DNA from: a virus | DNA: 41,388 nt | IMG/VR virus record: IMGVR_UViG_2648501563_000004 | Reading direction: 5' to 3' (one strand) | Shown here: positions 5,704 to 27,522 of the stretch, in pieces | Numbering within the stretch: the first letter of the stretch is position 1 | How the letters are laid out: each line of letters starts with the position of its first letter | The notes under the pieces: generated by a model | Seen by the model: only the letters and a program-made list of their open reading frames with translations | What the model was told of the DNA's origin: nothing | Databases searched by the model: none | Program-made: the position numbers and the translations under genes

Positions 5704-6609
5704 TTATAACTTTATAATTAGATTTTTAAACTCATCAACATTGTTAGATAATTTCATTACTGTAATTGTTTGAACTATTTGTTTTTTAAGATTATCATCA
5801 CCTATATCTTCTGTTAAAAATTGATGATGTCTATATTTTCTACATCCATTTTCATTTGATGGATTTCTGTTTTTTAATTCCTCTAAAACTCCATCAGGCA
5901 ATCTATCATAAACATATTTATTTATAAATTTTCCTAAATATTGGGGATGATTGCCGATTTTCGGATACTCCCATCCATGAATTCGATAGACTTGTTTAAA
6001 GAATTCATTTGGAAATTTCTGCGTCCATTCTCTTAATTCTTGAGCTATATATTTATCTAATATTTTTTGTAGTTCATTTCTATTTCTTTGTTCAACATAT
6101 CCAGTACAATCATCAATAAGGGCAGTGATTCCAACTGTAGCTAAACCATAAAGCATTGTTTTACAAATTTTAGCAACTGGTAATTGTTGTTTTTGTAAAA
6201 CTCCATCATTTTCAGCTTGGACATAAATTTTACATGTTTCAGGTAGAAGTGTTGCATCATAACCAATTAACTTTCTGCCATCAACGCCTTTGTATAAAAT
6301 TTCAGCCCCCCTCTCCGATAAATCTTGCGCTAGATATGGTGAAAGATTGTTTGCTGTTACAAAAACAGGAATACCAAGCATTCTCCCCCTCTCCATATCT
6401 TCAGATTTAGGTTTTGTCTTTCCCATAGCTTTTGCAAAGGTTCTTTGTCTCAAGATTCTTTTTCCATCTTCAAGAACATCACAAGCAATTTCCTGACCTG
6501 CAATAATTAAAACACCTGTATGTGTAGATTTTGGGATTGATGGATGCCATCTTTCTTGTGAAGCTTTTTTAGCTCGTTCTGAATTAGTCATCGATTTAGC
6601 ATTTGACAT
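5704..6609 (-). CDS. P63C-domain protein (301 aa), function unknown
   Basis: The protein is close to the Pfam P63C family as I remember it: CDVLEDGKRILRQRTFAKAMG, GYDATLLPETCKIY, LIDDCTGY, EWTQKFPNEFFKQVYRIHGW, YVYDRLPDGVLEELKNRNP, RHHQFLTEDIG. I chose the start at MSNAKS because of the AGGAG RBS. The ORF track extends to 6645. Confidence 0.8.
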   Translation of the reverse strand: MSNAKSMTNSERAKKASQERWHPSIPKSTHTGVLIIAGQEIACDVLEDGKRILRQRTFAKAMGKTKPKSEDMERGRMLGIPVFVTANNLSPYLAQDLSERGAEILYKGVDGRKLIGYDATLLPETCKIYVQAENDGVLQKQQLPVAKICKTMLYGLATVGITALIDDCTGYVEQRNRNELQKILDKYIAQELREWTQKFPNEFFKQVYRIHGWEYPKIGNHPQYLGKFINKYVYDRLPDGVLEELKNRNPSNENGCRKYRHHQFLTEDIGDDNLKKQIVQTITVMKLSNNVDEFKNLIIKL

Positions 6610-6660
6610 ATTAACTCCTTTTATTAGGTAGGATAAATATATCATTCTAAAAAATTTAAA

Positions 6661-6870
6661 TCAAACTTTCTTAGACATATTCTCATGAATCATGATAATA
6701 GATTGATGAATATGTTCTAAAGATTTCCTAGAAATACGATAGGGGCTTTTCGGCTTATTACCTATCCTAATTGCAATAATAAACCCCGATTTTATAGCCC
6801 TTCTTATCGTTGTATGATGACAACTGAAAAGTTGAGCTACTTCTTTAATTGAAAGAAATTCCGACTTCAT
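6661..6870 (-). CDS. Excisionase/MerR-type helix-turn-helix DNA-binding protein (69 aa)
   Basis: LSIKEVAQLFSCHHTTIRRAIKSG is a typical HTH_17-like motif. RBS GAGGT is present. It lies immediately upstream of the P63C gene on the minus strand. Confidence 0.7.
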   Translation of the reverse strand: MKSEFLSIKEVAQLFSCHHTTIRRAIKSGFIIAIRIGNKPKSPYRISRKSLEHIHQSIIMIHENMSKKV

Positions 6871-6973
6871 AAAACCTCAGAAATAATGTGCAAACATACA
6901 TAAACCACAGTATACCAATTATATTTTTTTTAACTCATGATTTGATCAAATAAACCCCATAACGGAGTCAATC

Positions 6974-9715
6974 ATGACAAGCCCTTTCTTACCTTGTTCT
7001 TTTTCATACAATGACGCTCCGTCAGGGGGCGTATTAATGCCGATGATCATAGCCGGTAGAGCACCTTCAGATTCAATAGATAAGCAATATAGTTCGGGAT
7101 ATTTATGGCTCTCAGACTTATTTCAAGGTGGTTCAGGAACTTTATATGTACAGGCGGGAAATAGTGCAGGTGCGCCAAATTGGACCCCTTTATCTGTTGC
7201 GTCTGGTGTATTAAATACTCTTTCGGATGGTTCTACAATTGTCAGTGCGATAGCAGGTAATATAAGATTAGTAGGAACAGCAAATCAGGTTTCGGTTACA
7301 TCAAATGCCCCTGGTCATGAATTAAATTTTACACTTCCTGCAAATATTATAACTCCTGGCGCAATGACTGTAACAGGACTTTTGACCTTGTTATCAGGTA
7401 TCACCATTACGGAAGGAGTCACAATTACAGGGGGACTGACTACTGATACTCTTACATCTACAGGAAACACAACTCTAGCGACTACAGGATCAACTACAAA
7501 TACTTTCGGAGCGGTATCAGGAACAACGACAATCGATCTTAGAGTGGGTCACACTGGAGCTAATGACTTCCTCGTCGAAGGTACTACAAATTCAACCATT
7601 TTTATTGGTAAGGGCCTCACAACAGGAGCAACAACAATCGGGGCGACGGCACAGACTGGCGCAATTACAATCGGTTCAAGCTCAGGAGCTAGCAACAGCG
7701 TATTAATTGCAAATGGAACTGGATCTACTACTGTATCAATTGCAAATGTGACAACAGCCGGAGCAGCTGTCAATATAATGGAAGGCGTTAATACCGTTGC
7801 AAATACATTTAGTCTGTGTTCTGGTGCAGTAAATGGCGATAATACGGTAAATATATTAAGCGGAAATGCCGTTGGAGGAACTTTAGCCTTTAATCTGTTT
7901 GGTGCATTATCAGCAACCACAGGGGGAACTGTTAACATTGGAACAGGGGCAGCTGCTCACGTGGTCAATATTGGTAATGCGACCGCAGCGACCGCGTCTA
8001 AAGTTGCTATTTTAGTTGGAACAGGTTCGTCACCTGACTTCCTAGTTGATGGGATTACTACATCTACATATCAAATAGGACCTTCTACCACTACAGGAAC
8101 AATCGTTATTGGCGGAACAGCAATGACAGGTGCCGGGGTTATAACTCTAGGTAGCTCCTCAGCAAGTTCTACCGTTAAAATAGCTTCTGGTGCTGGAGCA
8201 TCAACCGTCACAATTGGTGAAGGAACAGCAGCAGCAAATACAGTAAGTATTATTAATGGGACAAACAATGCTGGTGCAGGAACTGTAAATATTCTTTCTG
8301 GAGCTACTCCATCAACTGCGCAAACTCTCAATATAATGAATGGTGTAACAAGTGCAGCAGTAGCCCAAACATTTAATTTAATGATTGGTAACGTTGCAAC
8401 TGGCACATCAGCGGTTAACATTGGAACAGGATCTCAGCCTATTACAATTAAGCTAGGTGGAACGGGATCAGGAGTTAAAACAATTTCTATTGGTGATGGC
8501 GTTTCTGGAAATCAAATTACAATTGGAAATGGTGCAAACTCAACGGCACAAGCAATATCAATTGCTTCTGGAACTTCTGCAACTCAAACCTCATCAGTTT
8601 CTATATTGGATGGGGCAACACCTGGAAATGATCAGACCTTGGCAGTGATGGCAGGTGTGGCAAGTGCAGGAACTCAGAGCGTTCAAATTCTAGGTGGCGC
8701 AAATACAACAGGTTCCCAAAACTTCCAATTGTTTAATGGTGCTATTAATGGTGCAACGGATACCGTCAGCATATTTAGTGGAGTTATTGCAGGGGCTAGC
8801 ACATGTAAATTTGATCTGTTTAATGGTAATGCGTCAGCAGCAACATCCTTAACAGTAAATATTTTTGGATCGGCAGCAGCGACAAAATTAGGAACAGTTA
8901 ACATTGGAACAGGGGCCGTAGCTCACGTTACAAACATAGGAAGTTCAAGTGGTGGAAACGTCACGATTATTGGTGGCGCAACAGCTACAATCGGTATAGG
9001 CTTGGGTGGTAATGTTGCTCAAGTAATCACAATTGGCGCAGCAGGTCAAACAGGTATTATTTCTCTAGGAACATCATCAGGAACAAACGTTGTTAATTTG
9101 GGAACTGGAAACGGCAATAAAACAATGAATATTGTTACTGGAACTGGAACAAATGCAATCCATATCGGAGATGGAGCTGGTACAAATACAATAACAATTG
9201 GTACAAGCAATAGTACATCAACATTAAATCTATTGGCTGGAAGTGGTAATATTAACATGACTGGAGCCGTTACAAAATCTACAAACCCAGCCTTCTTATT
9301 AAATCTTGGAGCCACACAAACAAATGTTACTGGTACAGGTACAGCCTATACAATTGGAACAGGTGCAACTTTGACTGTCGTATTTGATAAGGGTTCTAAT
9401 GCTACAACCTCTGGGGTGTTTACTGCTCCTGTAACAGGACTTTATAGTCTAGGTGCTCAAGTTACAGTCCAAGGAACAACAATAGCCACAACATTTGTGA
9501 TTTCACTTGTTACAACAGCAAGGACATACACAAATACATTTACAAGAGCAGCAGGAGCGACAAATCAGACTGTAGCAATAAATTCGATATGCGATATGAC
9601 TGCAACTGATACGGCCCATATTACAATTGCCGTCACAGGGGAAGGCGCTGACAGTGATGACATTACTGGTTCGGCTTCTCCTGCTACATTTTTCTTTGGT
9701 AATTTGGTTGGATAA
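6974..9715 (+). CDS. Tail fibre (913 aa): long Gly/Thr/Ala-rich beta-helix-like repeat shaft with a C-terminal C1q/TNF-like globular head
   Basis: RBS GGAG is present. There are tens of degenerate ..V.IG.G.. repeats, with VNIGTGAAAHVVNIGN and VNIGTGAVAHVTNIGS recurring. The last ~140 aa (nt ~9284-9712) contain FDKGSNATTSGVFTAPVTGLYSL ... FFFGNLVG, matching the C1q hallmark F-x5-G-x-Y-x-[FL]. Confidence 0.85.
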   Translation: MTSPFLPCSFSYNDAPSGGVLMPMIIAGRAPSDSIDKQYSSGYLWLSDLFQGGSGTLYVQAGNSAGAPNWTPLSVASGVLNTLSDGSTIVSAIAGNIRLVGTANQVSVTSNAPGHELNFTLPANIITPGAMTVTGLLTLLSGITITEGVTITGGLTTDTLTSTGNTTLATTGSTTNTFGAVSGTTTIDLRVGHTGANDFLVEGTTNSTIFIGKGLTTGATTIGATAQTGAITIGSSSGASNSVLIANGTGSTTVSIANVTTAGAAVNIMEGVNTVANTFSLCSGAVNGDNTVNILSGNAVGGTLAFNLFGALSATTGGTVNIGTGAAAHVVNIGNATAATASKVAILVGTGSSPDFLVDGITTSTYQIGPSTTTGTIVIGGTAMTGAGVITLGSSSASSTVKIASGAGASTVTIGEGTAAANTVSIINGTNNAGAGTVNILSGATPSTAQTLNIMNGVTSAAVAQTFNLMIGNVATGTSAVNIGTGSQPITIKLGGTGSGVKTISIGDGVSGNQITIGNGANSTAQAISIASGTSATQTSSVSILDGATPGNDQTLAVMAGVASAGTQSVQILGGANTTGSQNFQLFNGAINGATDTVSIFSGVIAGASTCKFDLFNGNASAATSLTVNIFGSAAATKLGTVNIGTGAVAHVTNIGSSSGGNVTIIGGATATIGIGLGGNVAQVITIGAAGQTGIISLGTSSGTNVVNLGTGNGNKTMNIVTGTGTNAIHIGDGAGTNTITIGTSNSTSTLNLLAGSGNINMTGAVTKSTNPAFLLNLGATQTNVTGTGTAYTIGTGATLTVVFDKGSNATTSGVFTAPVTGLYSLGAQVTVQGTTIATTFVISLVTTARTYTNTFTRAAGATNQTVAINSICDMTATDTAHITIAVTGEGADSDDITGSASPATFFFGNLVG

Positions 9716-22271: not shown

Positions 22272-22712
22272 ATGAATCTCAAAGTTGAAATGAGTCAGCC
22301 AAATGATAAACCTTCCCAAAATCAAAAAGAACCGGGAAATTTGGTATTCGACCTAACAATCGACAATTTCCGACTAACATCCCCAAATCTCCAAGGTAAT
22401 CATTGGACCAAATCCAACAGAGTCAAAAAAGAGAAACGACGTTTCGGTCACGCGCTCATCGAGCATGGATTAACTAACGTACTATTCCATTTGCCTTGCA
22501 CCGTCGTTATCACTCGCATTGCACCTCGACGCATGGATGATGATAATAATATAGGAGCATGTAAGTGCGTCCGAGATATGATTGGGAGCCTTATTATCCC
22601 CGGGAAAAAGCCTGGTCACGCTGATGGCTCTGAGTTCATTAATTGGAAATATGTTCAGGAAAAAGGAGGTAAGGGAAACTATGCAGTACGCATCCAAGTT
22701 TATCAAGTCTAA
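22272..22712 (+). CDS. rusA: RusA-family Holliday junction resolvase
   Basis: SPNLQGNHWTKSNRVKKEKRRF and RMDDDNNIGACKCVRDMIGS match the RusA patterns (HW..R...K.wr and D.DN...K...D). The ATG at 22272 with an AGGAAG RBS is preferred over the ORF-track TTG at 22134. Confidence 0.7.
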   Translation: MNLKVEMSQPNDKPSQNQKEPGNLVFDLTIDNFRLTSPNLQGNHWTKSNRVKKEKRRFGHALIEHGLTNVLFHLPCTVVITRIAPRRMDDDNNIGACKCVRDMIGSLIIPGKKPGHADGSEFINWKYVQEKGGKGNYAVRIQVYQV

Positions 22713-22890
22713 GTTGACAGTAATTTTCGTCAGTTTTAAATTGGCTCAAATTTATGTCATCATTTTGGGTTTAATGATATTTTGCACAAGTTGCAATCCA
22801 GCTACTTGGTTTATTGCTGAAGAAGTAGCCGAAAGAGGCATCGAAGACATCGAAAAGGGCGAAGAGGATAGATTAAAGGAACCGAAATGA
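22681..22890 (+). CDS. Small membrane-anchored protein (69 aa)
   Basis: AGGAGG RBS before the ATG at 22681. A hydrophobic segment (VIFVSFKLAQIYVIILGLMIFCTSC) is followed by an acidic tail. It overlaps the rusA 3' end. Confidence 0.5.
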   Translation: MQYASKFIKSKLTVIFVSFKLAQIYVIILGLMIFCTSCNPATWFIAEEVAERGIEDIEKGEEDRLKEPK

Positions 22891-22985
22891 ACAACTTCTT
22901 CAATGACAATTTCGAGTATGCCCTCATCATAGTCTTCCTGGCTATTGCCTCCGCCCTATTTTTTGTTATGATTAATATCTGGTGA
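22887..22985 (+). CDS. Tiny membrane peptide (32 aa), below the ORF-track cut-off
   Basis: Hand translation gives MNNFFNDNFEYALIIVFLAIASALFFVMINIW. ATGA overlap with the upstream gene. Confidence 0.35.
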   Translation: MNNFFNDNFEYALIIVFLAIASALFFVMINIW

Positions 22986-22987
22986 TT

Positions 22988-23299
22988 ATGGACAATGAAA
23001 ATTACTCCGCTGAATTTGTTTACAGACCTTCAATCATCGGAACTGAATGTCAAGACGCAACTATTAAACCAGTTCGATTCCTCGAAAATCAAATACTTAA
23101 TGAAAATTGGATTGTAAATCTTAAATCTACAACTGAAGAAACTTGCCCCTGTTGTGATGCTAATGATTTTATTAGAAGAATCAATGATATCAATGAAGAA
23201 ACCAGTCTTTGCGAAGATTTAGAACTATTAAAAAAAGCTGTCGTATTTATCCTTGAAAATACCGAATGGAAAACATCACATGAAACGAAATCTCGATAA
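22988..23299 (+). CDS. Hypothetical protein (103 aa)
   Basis: The C-terminal LELLKKAVVFILENTEWK is paralogous to the N-terminal part of the next gene. Confidence 0.55.
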   Translation: MDNENYSAEFVYRPSIIGTECQDATIKPVRFLENQILNENWIVNLKSTTEETCPCCDANDFIRRINDINEETSLCEDLELLKKAVVFILENTEWKTSHETKSR

Positions 23300-23300
23300 A

Positions 23301-23579
23301 ATGGCCTTTGATCATCTTTATAATCTCGTAAATTTTAAACTCACCACACAAGACGATTTACAAATAATCATCCGCGCCGTTACATTTATTTTATCAAACA
23401 TGGACTGGATCAAAATCCAAAAGGACCAAAATATGCCGCTAAAACCAGGTAAAGAGAATATCGGTAAGAACATCAAAGAAATGGAAAAAGCAGGTCATAA
23501 ACCTTCGCAGGCAATAGCTGCAAGCCTTAACGAGGCTCGAAAATCAGGGGCAAAAATACCCTCCAAAAAAAAGAAATAA
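23301..23579 (+). CDS. Hypothetical protein (92 aa) with a C-terminal DUF6496-like basic motif
   Basis: DDLQIIIRAVTFILSNMDWIK is paralogous to the upstream gene. KPGKENIGKNIKEMEKAGHKPSQAIAASLNEARKSGAKIP resembles the small-protein family ..H.f..G......QAIAIALSEARKsGak. The start is uncertain and could be 23253, 23280 or 23301. Confidence 0.5.
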   Translation: MAFDHLYNLVNFKLTTQDDLQIIIRAVTFILSNMDWIKIQKDQNMPLKPGKENIGKNIKEMEKAGHKPSQAIAASLNEARKSGAKIPSKKKK

Positions 23580-23627
23580 AACAACACATGCGTGATCTTT
23601 TATATCATATCCAAAAAGTGAAATATC

Positions 23628-23837
23628 ATGCTCATGTCATTGCTAAAATGGCTAAAAAGCCGCAAACAACACAAAGATAAGGTTATCGAAATCATGGATA
23701 AAGAGATTCGTAAAATCGAAAAAGAAAATAAAAAAGAAGGCAAAGACTTGAAAAAGTTGGAGCATATGGACAAAAAAAGAGATAAAGTCTGCGCTATGGG
23801 TGAAAAGGCCATGAAAATGAAGCATAAGAAAAAGTAA
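23628..23837 (+). CDS. Lys-rich small protein (69 aa)
   Basis: The ORF has a highly basic, helical composition and a weak RBS. A competing 30-codon ORF lies at 23589-23681. Confidence 0.4.
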   Translation: MLMSLLKWLKSRKQHKDKVIEIMDKEIRKIEKENKKEGKDLKKLEHMDKKRDKVCAMGEKAMKMKHKKK

Positions 23838-23916
23838 TGACATTCATTGATCTGCTAATAGGCTTCATTCTAGGCATGTCTGTAACGGCTTTTATGCTTT
23901 ATTTTAGGGAACAAAA

Positions 23917-24129
23917 ATGAATCTAGATCAACTCATAAAACGTATTCAATATCTCGAAGATGGCAAATACTCATTACCCGAAGATGAAATCTTAGACATA
24001 AATGAAGCATTATTTTTAGTCTGTCATGAAATTAAACAGATCAAAGAAACCCAGTCCGAAATCATGATCGATCTCGCTTATCTCCTCGATAATAAACTAG
24101 AGCCTAATTGGGAGTCTAATAGCCAATGA
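23917..24129 (+). CDS. Hypothetical acidic protein (70 aa)
   Basis: The ORF is coupled to its neighbours by ATGA overlaps. Confidence 0.55.
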   Translation: MNLDQLIKRIQYLEDGKYSLPEDEILDINEALFLVCHEIKQIKETQSEIMIDLAYLLDNKLEPNWESNSQ

Positions 24130-24308
24130 AATCGCATCCCCATAAAAGCGCTGATCGCATTCTCTATTCCGAGCGCTACGACGCTTACTACTGCTCTTTT
24201 TGTAACGAATGGATAGACTCAAAATGTATAGACCCAGACTGTTTTTTCTGCCCCAATCGTCCAGATAAGCCGCTCCAAAATGACAAAAGCCTAGAGTCTA
24301 AACCCTAG
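24126..24308 (+). CDS. Small zinc-ribbon protein (60 aa); carries the left copy of the 120-bp repeat
   Basis: DRILYSERYDAYYCSFCNEWIDSKCIDPDCFFCPNRPD is almost identical to the C-terminus of 25293..25736. Confidence 0.6.
   Translation: MKSHPHKSADRILYSERYDAYYCSFCNEWIDSKCIDPDCFFCPNRPDKPLQNDKSLESKP
24152..24271 (+). repeat. 120-bp direct repeat, left copy (~92% identical to 25589..25708)
   Basis: Hand alignment shows 10 mismatches in 120 nt and no gaps. Confidence 0.9.
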
Positions 24309-24318
24309 GCCTTTTTTT
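24289..24318. terminator. Bidirectional intrinsic terminator
   Basis: GCCTAG (24289-94) and CTAGGC (24305-10) form the stem. AAAA lies upstream and TTTTTTT (24312-18) downstream. It sits between convergent genes 24126..24308 (+) and 24405..24713 (-). Confidence 0.65.
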
Positions 24319-24404
24319 ATTCCTTCGGATACTTTATTTGCATTATCTCTATCACAAGAGAATTAATTGATATTCGCCTGTCAAACGCCTCTTGTCTGAT
24401 CTTA

Positions 24405-24713
24405 TCATGCAGCTCCTTCGGTATCCGTATGTCTAGCTTCTGATTGTCTTTTAACATCTTTTTCCATCCTTTGCTTTATTGATTTTATCGTATGGTAAAA
24501 ACTACCTACATATGAATCTCTCCAATAGTCTTCTTCATCTTTTATTCTCTTAATATACACACTAATTACATGATCACCGCAATGCTCTTGTTGCGTCCAA
24601 TCCAAAACGTATTTTTCATTTTTGCATATATACATAACTCCATGGTTTTCTTTTTTTATTTTTACATTTAACCCTAATTTTGTTAGGCAATTTACGATAT
24701 TTTTAACTTTCAT
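24405..24713 (-). CDS. Hypothetical protein (102 aa), third gene of the inverted cassette
   Basis: GGAG RBS 7 nt upstream. No confident motif. The N-terminal MKVKNIVNCLTKLGLNV only vaguely resembles a HicA-like fold. Confidence 0.55.
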   Translation of the reverse strand: MKVKNIVNCLTKLGLNVKIKKENHGVMYICKNEKYVLDWTQQEHCGDHVISVYIKRIKDEEDYWRDSYVGSFYHTIKSIKQRMEKDVKRQSEARHTDTEGAA

Positions 24714-24731
24714 CTTACTTCTCCATTTTGT

Positions 24732-24890
24732 TTATTCTATATAAAATTTCTTTATCGGCTTTTCCTTTAGCCTTTTCTCATCAATTTTATCCTGGTTTTC
24801 TTCCAGCCATTTTTCAAGTTCTATCACATATTCGTCATATTCTTTCTGACTAATGATGACGATATACCCGTCATCATCTTCCTTGAGCAT
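24732..24890 (-). CDS. Small acidic protein (52 aa), second gene of the inverted cassette, below the ORF-track cut-off
   Basis: Hand translation gives MLKEDDDGYIVIISQKEYDEYVIELEKWLEENQDKIDEKRLKEKPIKKFYIE. The start is 1 nt after the upstream stop. GYIVIISQKEYDEYV weakly resembles Phd/YefM-type antitoxins. Confidence 0.45.
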   Translation of the reverse strand: MLKEDDDGYIVIISQKEYDEYVIELEKWLEENQDKIDEKRLKEKPIKKFYIE

Positions 24891-24891
24891 C

Positions 24892-25095
24892 TTAGCTGAC
24901 ATCTAACGCAAGCTCCACTATCTCCTCTAGCTCATAACCTAAATTCTGGAGTTCATTCAGTTTTTCAACTTCATTCTTCTCACTATTTAAAATAATGTAA
25001 GCCTTTTCCTTTTTTGTTAATTCTCTTGTAAATAACATTCCTGTCTTCATATTTATCATTAGCTCTTGTCCTGATTTATTTAAGATCTTTCCCAT
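24892..25095 (-). CDS. Hypothetical protein (67 aa), first gene of the inverted cassette
   Basis: ORF downstream of the divergent intergenic region 25096-25292. Confidence 0.5.
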   Translation of the reverse strand: MGKILNKSGQELMINMKTGMLFTRELTKKEKAYIILNSEKNEVEKLNELQNLGYELEEIVELALDVS

Positions 25096-25206
25096 TTTCT
25101 TACCCCATTTTGTTTTTGTTTCTTATCTCAGCTCCACTGCTACGAGTTAGCTCCGATTTTACGGAGACGCCTAACGAGTCGGTTTCGCTTTGATGACATC
25201 ATACTA

Positions 25207-25236
25207 CCATAATGGCATTAAATAATGCAAGCTTTT
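25207..25236 (-). promoter_or_regulatory. Promoter candidate for the inverted cassette
   Basis: On the minus strand: TTGCAT (complement of 25231-36), 18 nt, TAGTAT (complement of 25207-12), preceded by TGg (extended -10-like). Confidence 0.35.
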
Positions 25237-25292
25237 TTGTTGCTAAATTATTTATTTAACAATATTCTATGAGTTAATCACGAGGTGATTTT

Positions 25293-25736
25293 ATGGGTAC
25301 TCCAGGCGTTCCTTTAGCCATTTCACGCGAAACCTTAGTTACCGCTTTAAAAAAACATTCAGGTAATAAAACTAAAGCTGCAAAAGATTTAGATATTACG
25401 CGTCATTGTCTACATCAAAAAGTTATTGAAGATCCCGAATTAGTTAAACTTGTTTCAGATTTAAGACATTCACGAGATATTTGGCTTTGTGATAAGGCGG
25501 AAGATGCTCTAGAAAAGGCTTTGGATAGTGATATTGACATAAACGCAAGTCTAAAATCTGCTTTTTATGTTTTAAATAATAAGGGAAATGATCGCATTCT
25601 CTATTCCGAACGCTACGATGCCTACTACTGCTCTTTTTGTAACGAATGGCTAGACCCCAAATGTATAGATCCAGAATGTTTTTTCTGTCCCAATCGTCCA
25701 GATAGGCCTTTAACTAGCAAAAAATCTACCAAATAA
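25293..25736 (+). CDS. Chimeric protein: N-terminal Fis-type HTH domain fused to the duplicated zinc-ribbon module
   Basis: GNKTKAAKDLDITRHCLHQKV is a Fis/HTH_8-like motif. The C-terminal NDRILYSERYDAYYCSFCNEWLDPKCIDPECFFCPNRPD duplicates 24126..24308. GAGGTG RBS. Confidence 0.65.
   Translation: MGTPGVPLAISRETLVTALKKHSGNKTKAAKDLDITRHCLHQKVIEDPELVKLVSDLRHSRDIWLCDKAEDALEKALDSDIDINASLKSAFYVLNNKGNDRILYSERYDAYYCSFCNEWLDPKCIDPECFFCPNRPDRPLTSKKSTK
25589..25708 (+). repeat. 120-bp direct repeat, right copy (~92% identical to 24152..24271)
   Basis: See the left copy. Confidence 0.9.
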
Positions 25737-25763
25737 TCTATATTAAAAATAAAAGAGGTTACA

Positions 25764-26231
25764 ATGACAGCTGGTAGACCAAAAGAATATGATAGATCTA
25801 AAATCGGTGATGACCTCATTCAATGGGCTAAAAATAACCCTGATTGTCTCACTGTCCCCCACTTCGCAACATCAATCGGTTTAAATTCACAAATTTTAAT
25901 TAATTGGACGAAAGAAGATGAAGAATTTCGTGTGAAGTACATACAAGCAAAAGAACTAATTGGTTTAAATAGATTAAAAGCGACGCGAATAGAAGACGAA
26001 TCAGTTCAAAAACGTTTAGATAAAAGTATCTATATGCAAACGCTTCATCATTTCGACTATGACACTAAGCATGACGTTAGAGATGACAAGAAATATGAAT
26101 CCTCTCTACGCAAAGAAGAAGAAAGCTCAAAACAAATATCTCATACCATAGTGGTTTCCAATGACCTCTCCGCTGGCTCTAACATTCCAACCTCGCTCAT
26201 ATCAATGCCCGGCGATAAAAGCTCTAAATAG
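25764..26231 (+). CDS. terS: Terminase small subunit
   Basis: The N-terminal MTAGRPKEYD....L..W is typical of phage TerS/gp3-like HTH proteins. It lies immediately upstream of, and overlaps, terL. Confidence 0.7.
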   Translation: MTAGRPKEYDRSKIGDDLIQWAKNNPDCLTVPHFATSIGLNSQILINWTKEDEEFRVKYIQAKELIGLNRLKATRIEDESVQKRLDKSIYMQTLHHFDYDTKHDVRDDKKYESSLRKEEESSKQISHTIVVSNDLSAGSNIPTSLISMPGDKSSK

Positions 26232-27522
26232 CGGTATAAAGCGCGCTGTATTAGTTTGGCATCGCCGGAGTGGAAAAGACATATGCGCATTCAATTGGGC
26301 TATATATCAGCTCTTGCTTAATCCAGGATGGACTTGTTTTCATATTCTCCCTACGTATAGCCAAGCTAAGAAAGTCATTTGGGACGCTAACACAAACGAA
26401 TCTAAACGCCTTCTTGACTATATTCCAGATGAGTTAATTGACATCAAGAATGGTCAGGAAATGAAAATAAGGTTAACAAATGGCTCTCTTTATCAGCTTA
26501 TTGGAAGTGATAACATCGATTCTCTGGTGGGTACTAATCCCAAGATCATCATATTTAGCGAATATGCCATACAAAGCCCTGCTGCATGGGATTATTTACG
26601 TCCTATTCTCGACGTTAATAAAGGTTACGCTCTTTTTATCTCTACTCCTCGGGGGAAAAATCATTTTTATGACTTGTTAGTAAATGTTAGGAATAATCCT
26701 AAATGGTTCTGCGAAGTATTAAGCATCAAAGAAACAGATGTCTTAAATGAAGAGGATATGAATGTCATACGTAATGAAGGTGTCTCCGAAGAACTTATCC
26801 AACAAGAATATTACTGCTCGTTTAATCGAGGCGTAGAGGGATCTTATTATGGAAAACTCATCGAGAAAGCAAGAGAGGAAAAACGTATCTGTAATGTACC
26901 TTATGAAACAAGATCTCCTGTACATACAGCCTGGGACATTGGGTACGGAGATAGCACCTCAATTGTATTTTGGCAAGATCTCGGGGGGGAATGTAGAATT
27001 ATTGACTTTTATGAAAACCACGGAGAAGGGATAGCACATTATGCTAAAATCTTGCAGTCTAAACCTTATGTCTACGGCGTTCATTATATGCCGCATGATG
27101 CCGGATCAGGATCAATTCAAACTGGCCGCACGCTTCAAGATATTACTTATGAGCAGGGCATTAAAACAGTCGTATTGGAACGGGAAACTGATATCTCGAC
27201 TGGGATCGAAGCCGTTAGGGCTTTATTATCCATCGCATTTATCGATGAAATCAAGTGTCGCCATCTAATTAAATGCCTTGAAAACTATCACAAAAAATTC
27301 AACGAGAAAACACAAGCATATTCCGAAACACCAATGCACGATTGGTGTTCTCACGCTGCCGATAGCATTAGATACATGGCAAACGCCAGAACACAATTCG
27401 GTCGCGGTCCCGGAAGCTTAACACCTGACAAGCTCAATCAGCTAAAAGCGCAAGCTGGATTCGGCCCAAAACCCCGAGGTAATCCGATGATTGGCCCCCA
27501 AACTCCTTTTATTGGTAGATAA
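26161..27522 (+). CDS. terL: Terminase large subunit
   Basis: FQPRSYQCPAIKAL..RAVLVWHRRSGKD is a Walker A-like motif. IIIFSEYA is Walker B-like. FISTPRGKNHFY is present. The C-terminal nuclease part has AWDIGYGDSTSIVFWQ and HYMPHD. Confidence 0.9.
   Translation: MTSPLALTFQPRSYQCPAIKALNSGIKRAVLVWHRRSGKDICAFNWAIYQLLLNPGWTCFHILPTYSQAKKVIWDANTNESKRLLDYIPDELIDIKNGQEMKIRLTNGSLYQLIGSDNIDSLVGTNPKIIIFSEYAIQSPAAWDYLRPILDVNKGYALFISTPRGKNHFYDLLVNVRNNPKWFCEVLSIKETDVLNEEDMNVIRNEGVSEELIQQEYYCSFNRGVEGSYYGKLIEKAREEKRICNVPYETRSPVHTAWDIGYGDSTSIVFWQDLGGECRIIDFYENHGEGIAHYAKILQSKPYVYGVHYMPHDAGSGSIQTGRTLQDITYEQGIKTVVLERETDISTGIEAVRALLSIAFIDEIKCRHLIKCLENYHKKFNEKTQAYSETPMHDWCSHAADSIRYMANARTQFGRGPGSLTPDKLNQLKAQAGFGPKPRGNPMIGPQTPFIGR

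Follow-up and report, generated by a model that had tools for sequence, protein, structure and literature searches.

A probable in-frame join between a small-terminase-like gene and a zinc-ribbon gene beside the packaging genes of an uncultured phage

Introduction

Tailed-phage genomes are mosaics, and the 'novel joints' made by illegitimate recombination at or within gene boundaries are familiar from lambdoid phages and mycobacteriophages. Here we describe a locus of this kind in IMG/VR virus record IMGVR_UViG_2648501563_000004, a stretch of 41,388 nucleotides (nt) that was analysed as a whole and is called the window below, and which comes from an uncultured phage of ~41.8 kb with a P22-type portal. 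Where the early/middle region of this genome meets the packaging genes, two 120-nt direct repeats flank a small leftward operon; the first copy lies in the gene for a free-standing 60-amino-acid (aa) zinc-ribbon protein, ZnR60, and the second forms part of the C-terminal end of a 147-aa protein, HTH-ZnR147, that begins with a helix-turn-helix (HTH) domain. Like known mosaic joints, the locus shows an abrupt loss of similarity inside a gene, two sides with different relatives, and an in-frame chimeric open reading frame (ORF) beside the packaging genes. Unlike them, it appears to hold both parental versions of the zinc-ribbon (ZnR) gene in one genome, as 120-nt repeats 1.4 kb apart, so that the joint is visible without comparison and a substrate for deletion has been left.

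A second precedent is the replacement of terS, the small-terminase gene, in headful phages. The likeness lies in an HTH protein of ~140 aa upstream of terL and in unrelated terS types that accompany related TerL proteins, the types compared here being that of terS155, the terS of the window, in at least 15 relatives, and an HTH_8 type in L024 (L and P numbers denote compared loci and proteins). The window differs in that it keeps a truncated HTH_8-type gene, fused to ZnR, beside a complete terS155, the HTH_8 type being a putative terS.

For the operon between the repeats, the closest described systems are found elsewhere. The immI region of phage P22 carries the ribbon-helix-helix (RHH) repressors Arc and Mnt, which control ant. 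Our locus resembles immI in having an RHH gene in a short, independently transcribed accessory operon among late genes, in a phage with a P22-type portal; it differs in its genome position, in having no antirepressor homologue and a single RHH gene, and in a similarity to Arc that is that of a generic Arc/RHH profile. Phage morons are comparable as autonomous units with their own promoter and terminator between two operons, with variable content, and two genes here, o67 and o56, were apparently added; unlike in morons, the promoter, the leader and the gene o102 are conserved across phages, and the GC content is only slightly under that of the genome. A further likeness is to anti-defence operons in which Aca14, an RHH autoregulator, stands at the 3' end (PMC13551039). 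Shared with these acr-aca operons are a promoter, a structured 5' untranslated region, orphan small proteins, a 3' gene for a small DNA-binding protein and a hypervariable locus (PMC13551039), with an RHH in place of the usual HTH and the same terminal-RHH layout in L034. In contrast to them, the operon of the window has no known Acr or other anti-defence protein, and its operator consists of candidate motifs only.

Results and discussion

Two diverged copies of a zinc-ribbon core

Copy 1 of the repeat (24152-24271) covers codons 10-49 of ZnR60 (24126-24308, plus strand), and copy 2 (25589-25708) covers codons 100-139 of HTH-ZnR147 (25293-25736, plus strand). The copies, each 120 nt long and spaced 1437 nt apart, are 92% identical and align without gaps, confirming the coordinates and identity given in an earlier note on this DNA that had been made from the sequence alone. 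The protein sequence that both encode in frame is DRILYSERYDAYYCSFCNEW(I/L)D(S/P)KCIDP(D/E)CFFCPNRPD(K/R). Similarity is lost abruptly at the left edge, which in copy 2 we take to be the recombination joint; at the right edge it runs on for two extra codons (Pro-Leu), through three synonymous changes, and then ends. Within the repeat, six changes are synonymous and four are conservative non-synonymous ones, with every Cys kept, and the divergence between copies amounts to a pS (synonymous) of 0.28-0.36, 0.28 inside the repeat itself, and a pN (non-synonymous) of 0.042, with omega ~0.15. A role of the repeat at the DNA level, for example as a pac site, was considered and rejected, the substitution pattern being one of protein-level constraint.

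The 120-nt repeat coincides exactly with the conserved core of a ZnR family, for which an alignment-based search returned 83 protein clusters of 48-119 aa, named 'hypothetical' wherever they are named. The family signature is [CxxC]-x6-9-(S/N)ERYDAYYCxxCxxWLExKCxDPxCxFCxxRP(D/E)KP; no Pfam family matches it, and a word-indexed protein search with ZnR60 alone found nothing, so that an alignment query was required. Of the 55 members fitting the core pattern, 42 have an N-terminal CxxC knuckle besides the central CxxC. At the knuckle position ZnR60 reads 'HPH' and the chimera has nothing, and other members without the knuckle exist, such as P0080. The core of ZnR60 is modelled by AF2 as beta-hairpins (pLDDT ~87); a fold search of the protein against the PDB gave no significant match, and the resemblance of the core to zinc ribbons is weak and generic (uS14, E=0.01; TFIIB ribbon, TM 0.44). 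The gene, an ORF with a ribosome-binding site (RBS) that is absent from public gene calls, is the final one of the rightward early/middle block, and an overlapping ATGA contains its start codon and the stop codon of the 70-aa gene upstream. By these comparisons, ZnR60 is an ordinary free-standing member of a widespread, unannotated ZnR family. A 100-aa member also occurs in L052 (6001-6303), on a 409-kb bacterial contig (ERZ21271129), beside a tyrosine integrase and insertion-sequence genes; given the bacterial size of this contig, the family would therefore be present in integrated elements too.

The locus, or parts of it, was found in six assemblies from independent samples. Contigs of JGI 3300002098, JGI 3300002307, SRR6214541, SRR5247223 and ERZ19034208 match the window at 100% identity over one or both junctions, and SRR6220867 keeps the gene order and differs by a single residue of the 147-aa protein. 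The window does derive from a metagenome assembly, as an assembly or chimeric-contig artefact would require, but both junctions are crossed at 100% identity in independent samples and with independent assemblers (L033, L038/L048, L045/L047, L049, L055), and copies that differ by 8% would neither collapse nor give a misjoin. The probability of such an artefact is negligible, and the repeat locus is not an assembly artefact. A sister variant, P0105, differs by one residue, and is therefore of no use for dating the event.

Recombination between the copies had been proposed to excise everything between them. Such a deletion would indeed be in frame and would leave a single complete ZnR gene ahead of terS, and the copies share identical tracts of up to 27 nt, but no deleted variant occurs in the samples: none of the contigs encoding an identical terS155 or o70 has the deletion or a single copy. 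The search for single-copy, cassette-free relatives that the earlier note had suggested was likewise run, and returned none among the relatives or the population variants.

The 147-aa protein is a chimera

HTH-ZnR147 joins an HTH_8-type, small-terminase-like part (residues 1-~99) to the ZnR core and a tail (residues 100-147). Residues 11-43 form an HTH_8/Fis-type domain (Pfam, 27.0 bits; cut-off 22), in line with the Fis-type HTH that had been proposed for this N-terminus. The sole database homologue of the protein, P0002 (143 aa, in L031), is 51% identical over residues 1-101 and continues past residue 101 with an unrelated acidic tail, while further HTH_8-type relatives in L036 (136 aa), L024 (126 aa) and L050 (141 aa) match residues 1-~101 only. 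All four homologues of the HTH part carry a different tail of ~40 aa past residue ~101, and the homology of these relatives breaks at the first codon of repeat copy 2. Because it stops at this left edge, the 147-aa protein is, on comparison with its relatives, a recombinant chimera; the divergence of the four relatives at the same point also upholds the earlier view that the protein is chimeric and of recombinational origin.

Gene position and profile matches suggest what the HTH part once was. Used as a profile, the HTH_8-type family matches the HTH of ZraR (E=2e-4). Its member in L024 directly abuts terL and matches the terS family phrog_309 (E=2e-6) as well as two weaker terS families of the PHROGs database, and in L031 and L050 the HTH_8-type protein is the sole terS candidate upstream of terL. 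In the window, terS155 (25764-26231, plus strand), a small-terminase gene by its match to phrog_3064 (E=1e-5) and, weakly, to phrog_1482, stands between the chimera and terL (26161-27522, plus strand), the latter being identified by PHROG 2 (E=4.5e-32) and Pfam Terminase_6C. Homologues of terS155, 24-55% identical, occupy the same place and overlap terL in at least 15 of the TerL relatives. The chimera has the family tail beyond residue ~101, where the C-terminal oligomerisation/TerL-binding region of a small terminase would lie, replaced by the ZnR core, and the window would thus pair a truncated, ZnR-fused terS-like gene of one type with a terS of another type that is complete. We regard the chimera as probably a remnant that is tolerated, which may still bind DNA. 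A putative rightward promoter for it (25240-25289, plus strand), with a -35 box TTGCTA at 25240-25245 and a -10 box TATTCT at 25263-25268, was read directly from the sequence of the window alone; the Shine-Dalgarno site of the chimera is GAGGTGAT at 25282-25289, and all genes in the region are preceded by such sites.

Where the HTH_8-type gene is intact, as in L031 and L050, a conserved opposite-strand gene lies between it and terL (L031, 2972-3322, and L050, 8250-8627, both minus strand). It encodes a protein of 116-125 aa with an N-terminal CxxC...CxC motif, which in L050 matches DUF7695.

The cassette is a resident of a variable slot

Relatives were collected with TerL as the anchor: IMG/VR holds 30 of them, with TerL identities up to 82%, and the closest deposited phage is 41% identical. 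In L004, L007, L010, L013, L021, L024, L031 and L035, the stretch from the end of the early region to terS/terL holds opposite-strand gene clusters of varied content, and the slot upstream of terS/terL is, as far as these gene orders go, hypervariable. In the slots of L004, L010 and L021, a small minus-strand protein has by eye a motif like Q.DLF...DE.S.LK...VRK, which the window does not have.

The same genes as in the window recur in a particular order elsewhere. L034, a diverged phage fragment, has an o102 homologue (56% identical) followed by a 77-aa gene, an RHH gene, a hairpin and finally a ZnR gene in convergent orientation; a divergent 62-aa gene flanks the o102 homologue on its far side. 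In L031 and L036, the HTH_8-type gene has this 62-aa gene close upstream, a single small gene intervening in L031. The o102 homologue of L035 heads a five-gene operon divergent from terS-terL, and that of L036 heads an early operon containing YqaJ. L050, a relative of ~40 kb, has its ZnR gene within the block of small rightward genes that follows RusA.

Synonymous sites of the ZnR core are saturated between the window and either L034 or L050 (pS >=0.8). Because pS is 0.28-0.36 between the two copies as against at least 0.8 towards L034, the junction of ZnR60, terminator and cassette is older than the split of the copies. The promoter, leader, o102, RHH gene and convergent ZnR gene make up an old conserved block, and the order in which a ZnR gene and an RHH...o102 unit converge on a terminator predates both the split between the window and L034 and that of the two copies. 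Our verdict from this synteny is that the cassette is resident, and was not inserted between the repeats.

Origin of the repeat

We hold it probable, with a good deal of room for doubt, that the repeat arose by a single non-homologous, in-frame join of a terS-like gene to a ZnR gene, the cassette being the resident content of the slot. Codon ~100 of the resident HTH_8-type terS-like gene, which normally follows the slot, would have been joined to codon ~10 of a second ZnR gene, which we place directly upstream of terS155-terL. The join would have displaced the C-terminal tail of the old terS-like gene, would have brought in or retained the terS155-type packaging module, and would have produced the 147-aa HTH-ZnR chimera. 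A single join of this kind accounts for the chimera, for the two terS-like genes, for the abrupt left edge and for the substitution pattern, which (pS 0.28, pN 0.042, Cys kept) fits two functional genes diverging in separate lineages; the two ZnR copies are most probably xenologues from two related phage lineages. Several points weigh against this account. No ZnR gene was found directly upstream of a terS155-type gene among the relatives or population variants, which leaves the right-hand parent hypothetical, and similarity also breaks at the right edge of the repeat, so that at least two non-homologous events belong to its history. The data fit either side as donor or as recipient, and the purifying selection on both copies (omega ~0.15) fits a functional chimera kept in one genome equally well. 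The HTH_8-type members of the window, L031 and L036 have no match to a PHROG terS profile, and the family is taken as small-terminase-like from gene position and from one PHROG match of one member.

The earlier note had instead proposed that a foreign segment, consisting of the terminator, the cassette, the promoters and 100 codons of HTH, was inserted into a single ZnR gene next to terS155 and duplicated its 120-nt core. The geometry fits this well, since the copies are in the same frame, share a 27-nt identical tract and would by deletion restore one ZnR gene beside terS, and the gene content of the slot does differ between relatives; in a modified form, a donor with ZnR beside the cassette, as in L034, could give the observed product through homologous recombination at the left end and non-homologous recombination at the right. 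However, the ZnR60-terminator-cassette junction is conserved in the diverged L034 and is apparently older than the split of the copies, the promoter, leader, o102 and downstream HTH-type gene are features of the group, and neither the ancestral nor the excised state is seen in any relative or population variant, across six samples. A synonymous divergence of 28% is also excessive for a fresh target duplication; no transposase, integrase or terminal inverted repeats were found between the repeats, and what is duplicated is 120 nt of coding sequence, 8% diverged. We consider insertion unlikely: the recombinational origin of the chimera survives from that model, and the cassette plus HTH as a foreign module in a single ZnR gene does not, in view of the L034 synteny, the shared promoter, leader and o102, and the general nature of the slot. 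An internal duplication, in which illegitimate recombination between the sister genomes of a concatemer put a copy of the phage's own ZnR core after the HTH gene and the chimera was then selected as a functional protein, perhaps a regulator or a packaging accessory factor, seems to us improbable as well. It would explain why the two copies resemble one another far more than they do the rest of the family and why all Cys and the conserved core are kept in both (omega ~0.15); the chimera also has a strong RBS and comes first in the late operon, and the existence of knuckle-less members such as P0080 means that a partial copy could fold. On the other hand, duplication needs two non-homologous junctions where one suffices, and the 27-nt tract together with phage-encoded YqaJ-type recombination should have deleted or homogenised the repeats before pS reached 0.28. 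The fusion is moreover unique, no HTH fusion being found among the 83 ZnR clusters and none with ZnR among the four HTH-type relatives, and the complete terS155 beside a truncated terS-like gene would be left unexplained.

The event proposed here, a single join of the terS-like gene to the second ZnR gene, is of a known kind, namely mosaic joining with replacement of a module at the packaging genes, and is not conceptually new. If it took place as proposed, one in-frame non-homologous join retired a small-terminase-like gene, which illustrates how phage genomes get rebuilt, and since both parental ZnR genes were kept, the position of the breakpoint can be fixed with single-codon precision. More useful leads may be the unannotated ZnR family of 83 clusters, the rare, well-folded o102 family of ~85 aa and the conserved promoter and leader of the operon.

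The leftward operon

The cassette is a leftward operon in the order o67-o56-o102-RHH46, with a GC content of 0.32 against 0.37 for the genome. Three minus-strand genes had been recognised here before; the ORFs of 67, 56 (52 from the second Met) and 102 aa, each with a Shine-Dalgarno site, hold up, but a fourth gene, RHH46, had been missed.

RHH46 (24317-24457, minus strand), the last gene of the operon, encodes a 46-aa RHH protein that matches Pfam HicB (27.9 bits; cut-off 21) and Arc (21.4 bits; cut-off 20.4) and, among the PHROGs, Arc-like repressor and partition-protein families; the Pfam HicB model here stands for a generic RHH that is also common to transcription factors. Its RBS is AAGGATGG, it ends 3 nt from the terminator, and it overlaps the 3' end of the o102 ORF by 53 nt. 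The product of o102 (24405-24713, minus strand) belongs to a rare phage family of ~85 aa and has a 17-aa C-terminal extension that overlaps RHH46. An exhaustive HMMER search among 1.84 billion representatives found 16 relatives, and the clear family members, of ~79-109 aa, match residues 1-~85. Because the family matches end at ~85, we read the overlap as a 17-aa extension and the two as separate genes, and reject a single frameshifted HicB-like gene made up of o102 and RHH46. The AF2 model of o102 (pLDDT 86.8) has an alpha-beta4-alpha arrangement, for which fold searches against the PDB and BFVD gave no significant match. The family marks the first gene of leftward early operons.

Upstream lie o56 (24732-24902, minus strand), an orphan of 56 aa, or 52 aa from the second Met, and o67 (24892-25095, minus strand), an orphan of 67 aa and the first gene of the operon; both are ORFs with an RBS, and neither has a family match or homologue in any search (Pfam, PHROGs, NCBIfam, PADLOC, protein searches). 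A 23-nt stretch directly upstream of o102 (24711-24733) pairs as a direct repeat with 25093-25115, the two being 78% identical (minus strand, AAACAAAATGGAGAAGTAAGATG and AAACAAAATGGGGTAAGAAAATG), and the same RBS context stands directly before the o102 homologue of L034. Because they are bracketed by this RBS duplication, and because the leader of the relatives leads straight into the o102 homologue, o67 and o56 look as if they had been added later, behind the leader and ahead of o102, to an older leader-o102-RHH operon.

Terminator, promoter and leader

Between the convergent ZnR60 and RHH46 lies a bidirectional intrinsic terminator (24285-24314), as had been reported, with a 13-pair stem, T-runs on both strands and folding energies of -18.3 kcal/mol on the minus strand and -12.3 kcal/mol on the plus strand; an analogous palindrome stands between the RHH and ZnR genes of L034.

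At the other end, a putative operon promoter (25201-25237, minus strand) consists of a -35 box TTGCAT (25225-25230), an 18-nt spacer and a -10 box TAGTAT (25201-25206), with AAAAAGC upstream. It scored below threshold in a sigma-70 consensus scan that was no better than shuffles, and the call rests on conservation and not on a consensus score: the phylogenetic footprint comprises AAAAAGCTTGAGT with a -35 box TTGAGT in L034, and TTGCGA in L035 and L036. Common to the window and L034, L035, L036 and L037 are also a CATCAAAGC start region and a leader ending in a AAACAAAATGGAG-type RBS, the promoter-leader units being located at 25096-25237 (minus strand) in the window, 275-391 in L034, 7868-8000 in L035, 2785-2897 in L036 and 385-497 in L037.

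The conserved 5' leader of ~100 nt (25096-25195, minus strand) has a GTAGC...AGC motif and a bulged hairpin (25146-25175). When the window is compared with L034, 15 of 15 pairs proposed for the leader are kept, and for the hairpin 10 of 10, five of them by compensatory changes, with 24-38% paired in slid controls; the folding energies were no better than those of shuffled sequences, and a good alignment across the hairpin is limited to two sequences. The covariation is suggestive of a structured RNA element, possibly a new cis-regulatory RNA. A loose pattern search of the fetched loci gave no additional leader copies.

Two 10-mers, CTAYGAGTTA and GATTTTAYGG, occur twice each and in the same order, at 25140-25164 and 25267-25296. 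Two of the three exact copies of CTAYGAGTTA in the whole window lie here, as do both of those of GATTTTAYGG. The first pair falls in the leader hairpin and the second spans the RBS and initiation codon of HTH-ZnR147, and the pairs could be operators or allow antisense pairing. Further candidate operators are AT-rich inverted repeats of 8 nt at 25218-25226 and 25247-25259, around both -35 boxes. Neither the inverted repeats nor the 10-mers are conserved in L034.

What the operon may do

The locus had been suggested to encode a toxin-antitoxin pair. As a type II module it would be HicAB-like, with o102 and RHH46 as partners, or Phd/YefM-like, with o56 and a neighbour; RHH46 does score above the Pfam HicB cut-off, and o102 directly before and overlapping RHH46 has the gene order of hicAB. 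Yet o102, o56 and o67 have no toxin match in Pfam, NCBIfam, PADLOC or PHROGs, and the pairing is not conserved: L035 and L036 have an o102 homologue but no accompanying RHH gene, and the pair in L034 is interrupted by a 77-aa gene. The o102 family has neither a conserved His nor another catalytic signature, and no HicA-like fold match, for which reason o102 was rejected as a HicA-like toxin. The weak likeness of the middle protein, o56, to Phd/YefM that had been remarked upon was not recovered, there being no such match in Pfam even at E<=1 and none in NCBIfam or PADLOC. Lacking support from the four libraries and from gene pairing, a toxin-antitoxin role is very unlikely.

RHH46 probably represses the leftward promoter as an autoregulator, by analogy with Arc, Mnt and Aca14, and the small proteins of the operon may possibly serve accessory early functions such as counter-defence or host takeover. 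A stronger version of the acr-aca analogy, in which o67, o56 and o102 would be new anti-defence or host-takeover proteins, RHH46 an Aca14-like regulator and the leader a new cis-regulatory RNA, has in our view a low but appreciable likelihood, and under it the HTH-ZnR chimera, too, might be new, as a DNA-binding protein with a function of its own. PADLOC, it should be said, covers defence systems, not anti-defence proteins. A hypervariable opposite-strand slot near terS is the kind of site that harbours anti-defence genes, and given a host, this slot and the leads named above offer candidates for functional screens.

Further searches and neighbouring features

Searches for the locus elsewhere found nothing among deposited phages, either with the DNA of 23800-26300 or by tblastn with o102, ZnR60 and HTH(1-99); the same was true of IMG/VR scans with the chimera, terS155, o102 and the o102 alignment, of a reference-genome scan with the o102 alignment, of PADLOC and NCBIfam with every cassette protein, and of an Rfam scan across 23000-27000. 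A scan of reference genomes for prophage relatives of TerL, as a clue to the host, returned only matches of at most 35% identity.

The terL of L021 (IMGVR_UViG_3300046788_000343, 6001-8211) contains an intein (Pfam Intein_splicing, 44.7 bits) with boundaries HDWC|FTGDT...VHN|CSHAAD, and a 220-aa HNH_3 endonuclease ORF (53.5 bits) is nested within it in another reading frame, which is an unusual, out-of-frame arrangement. The second TerL fragment in this locus had been considered as a duplication and was rejected as such, the fragment being the C-extein of the intein.

Finally, L049 (ERZ19034208) is 100% identical to the window over 22769-24325, and 21 mismatches crowd in the preceding 105 nt (22659-22768 region). 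This cluster marks a further sharp mosaic boundary, ~1.4 kb upstream of ZnR60.

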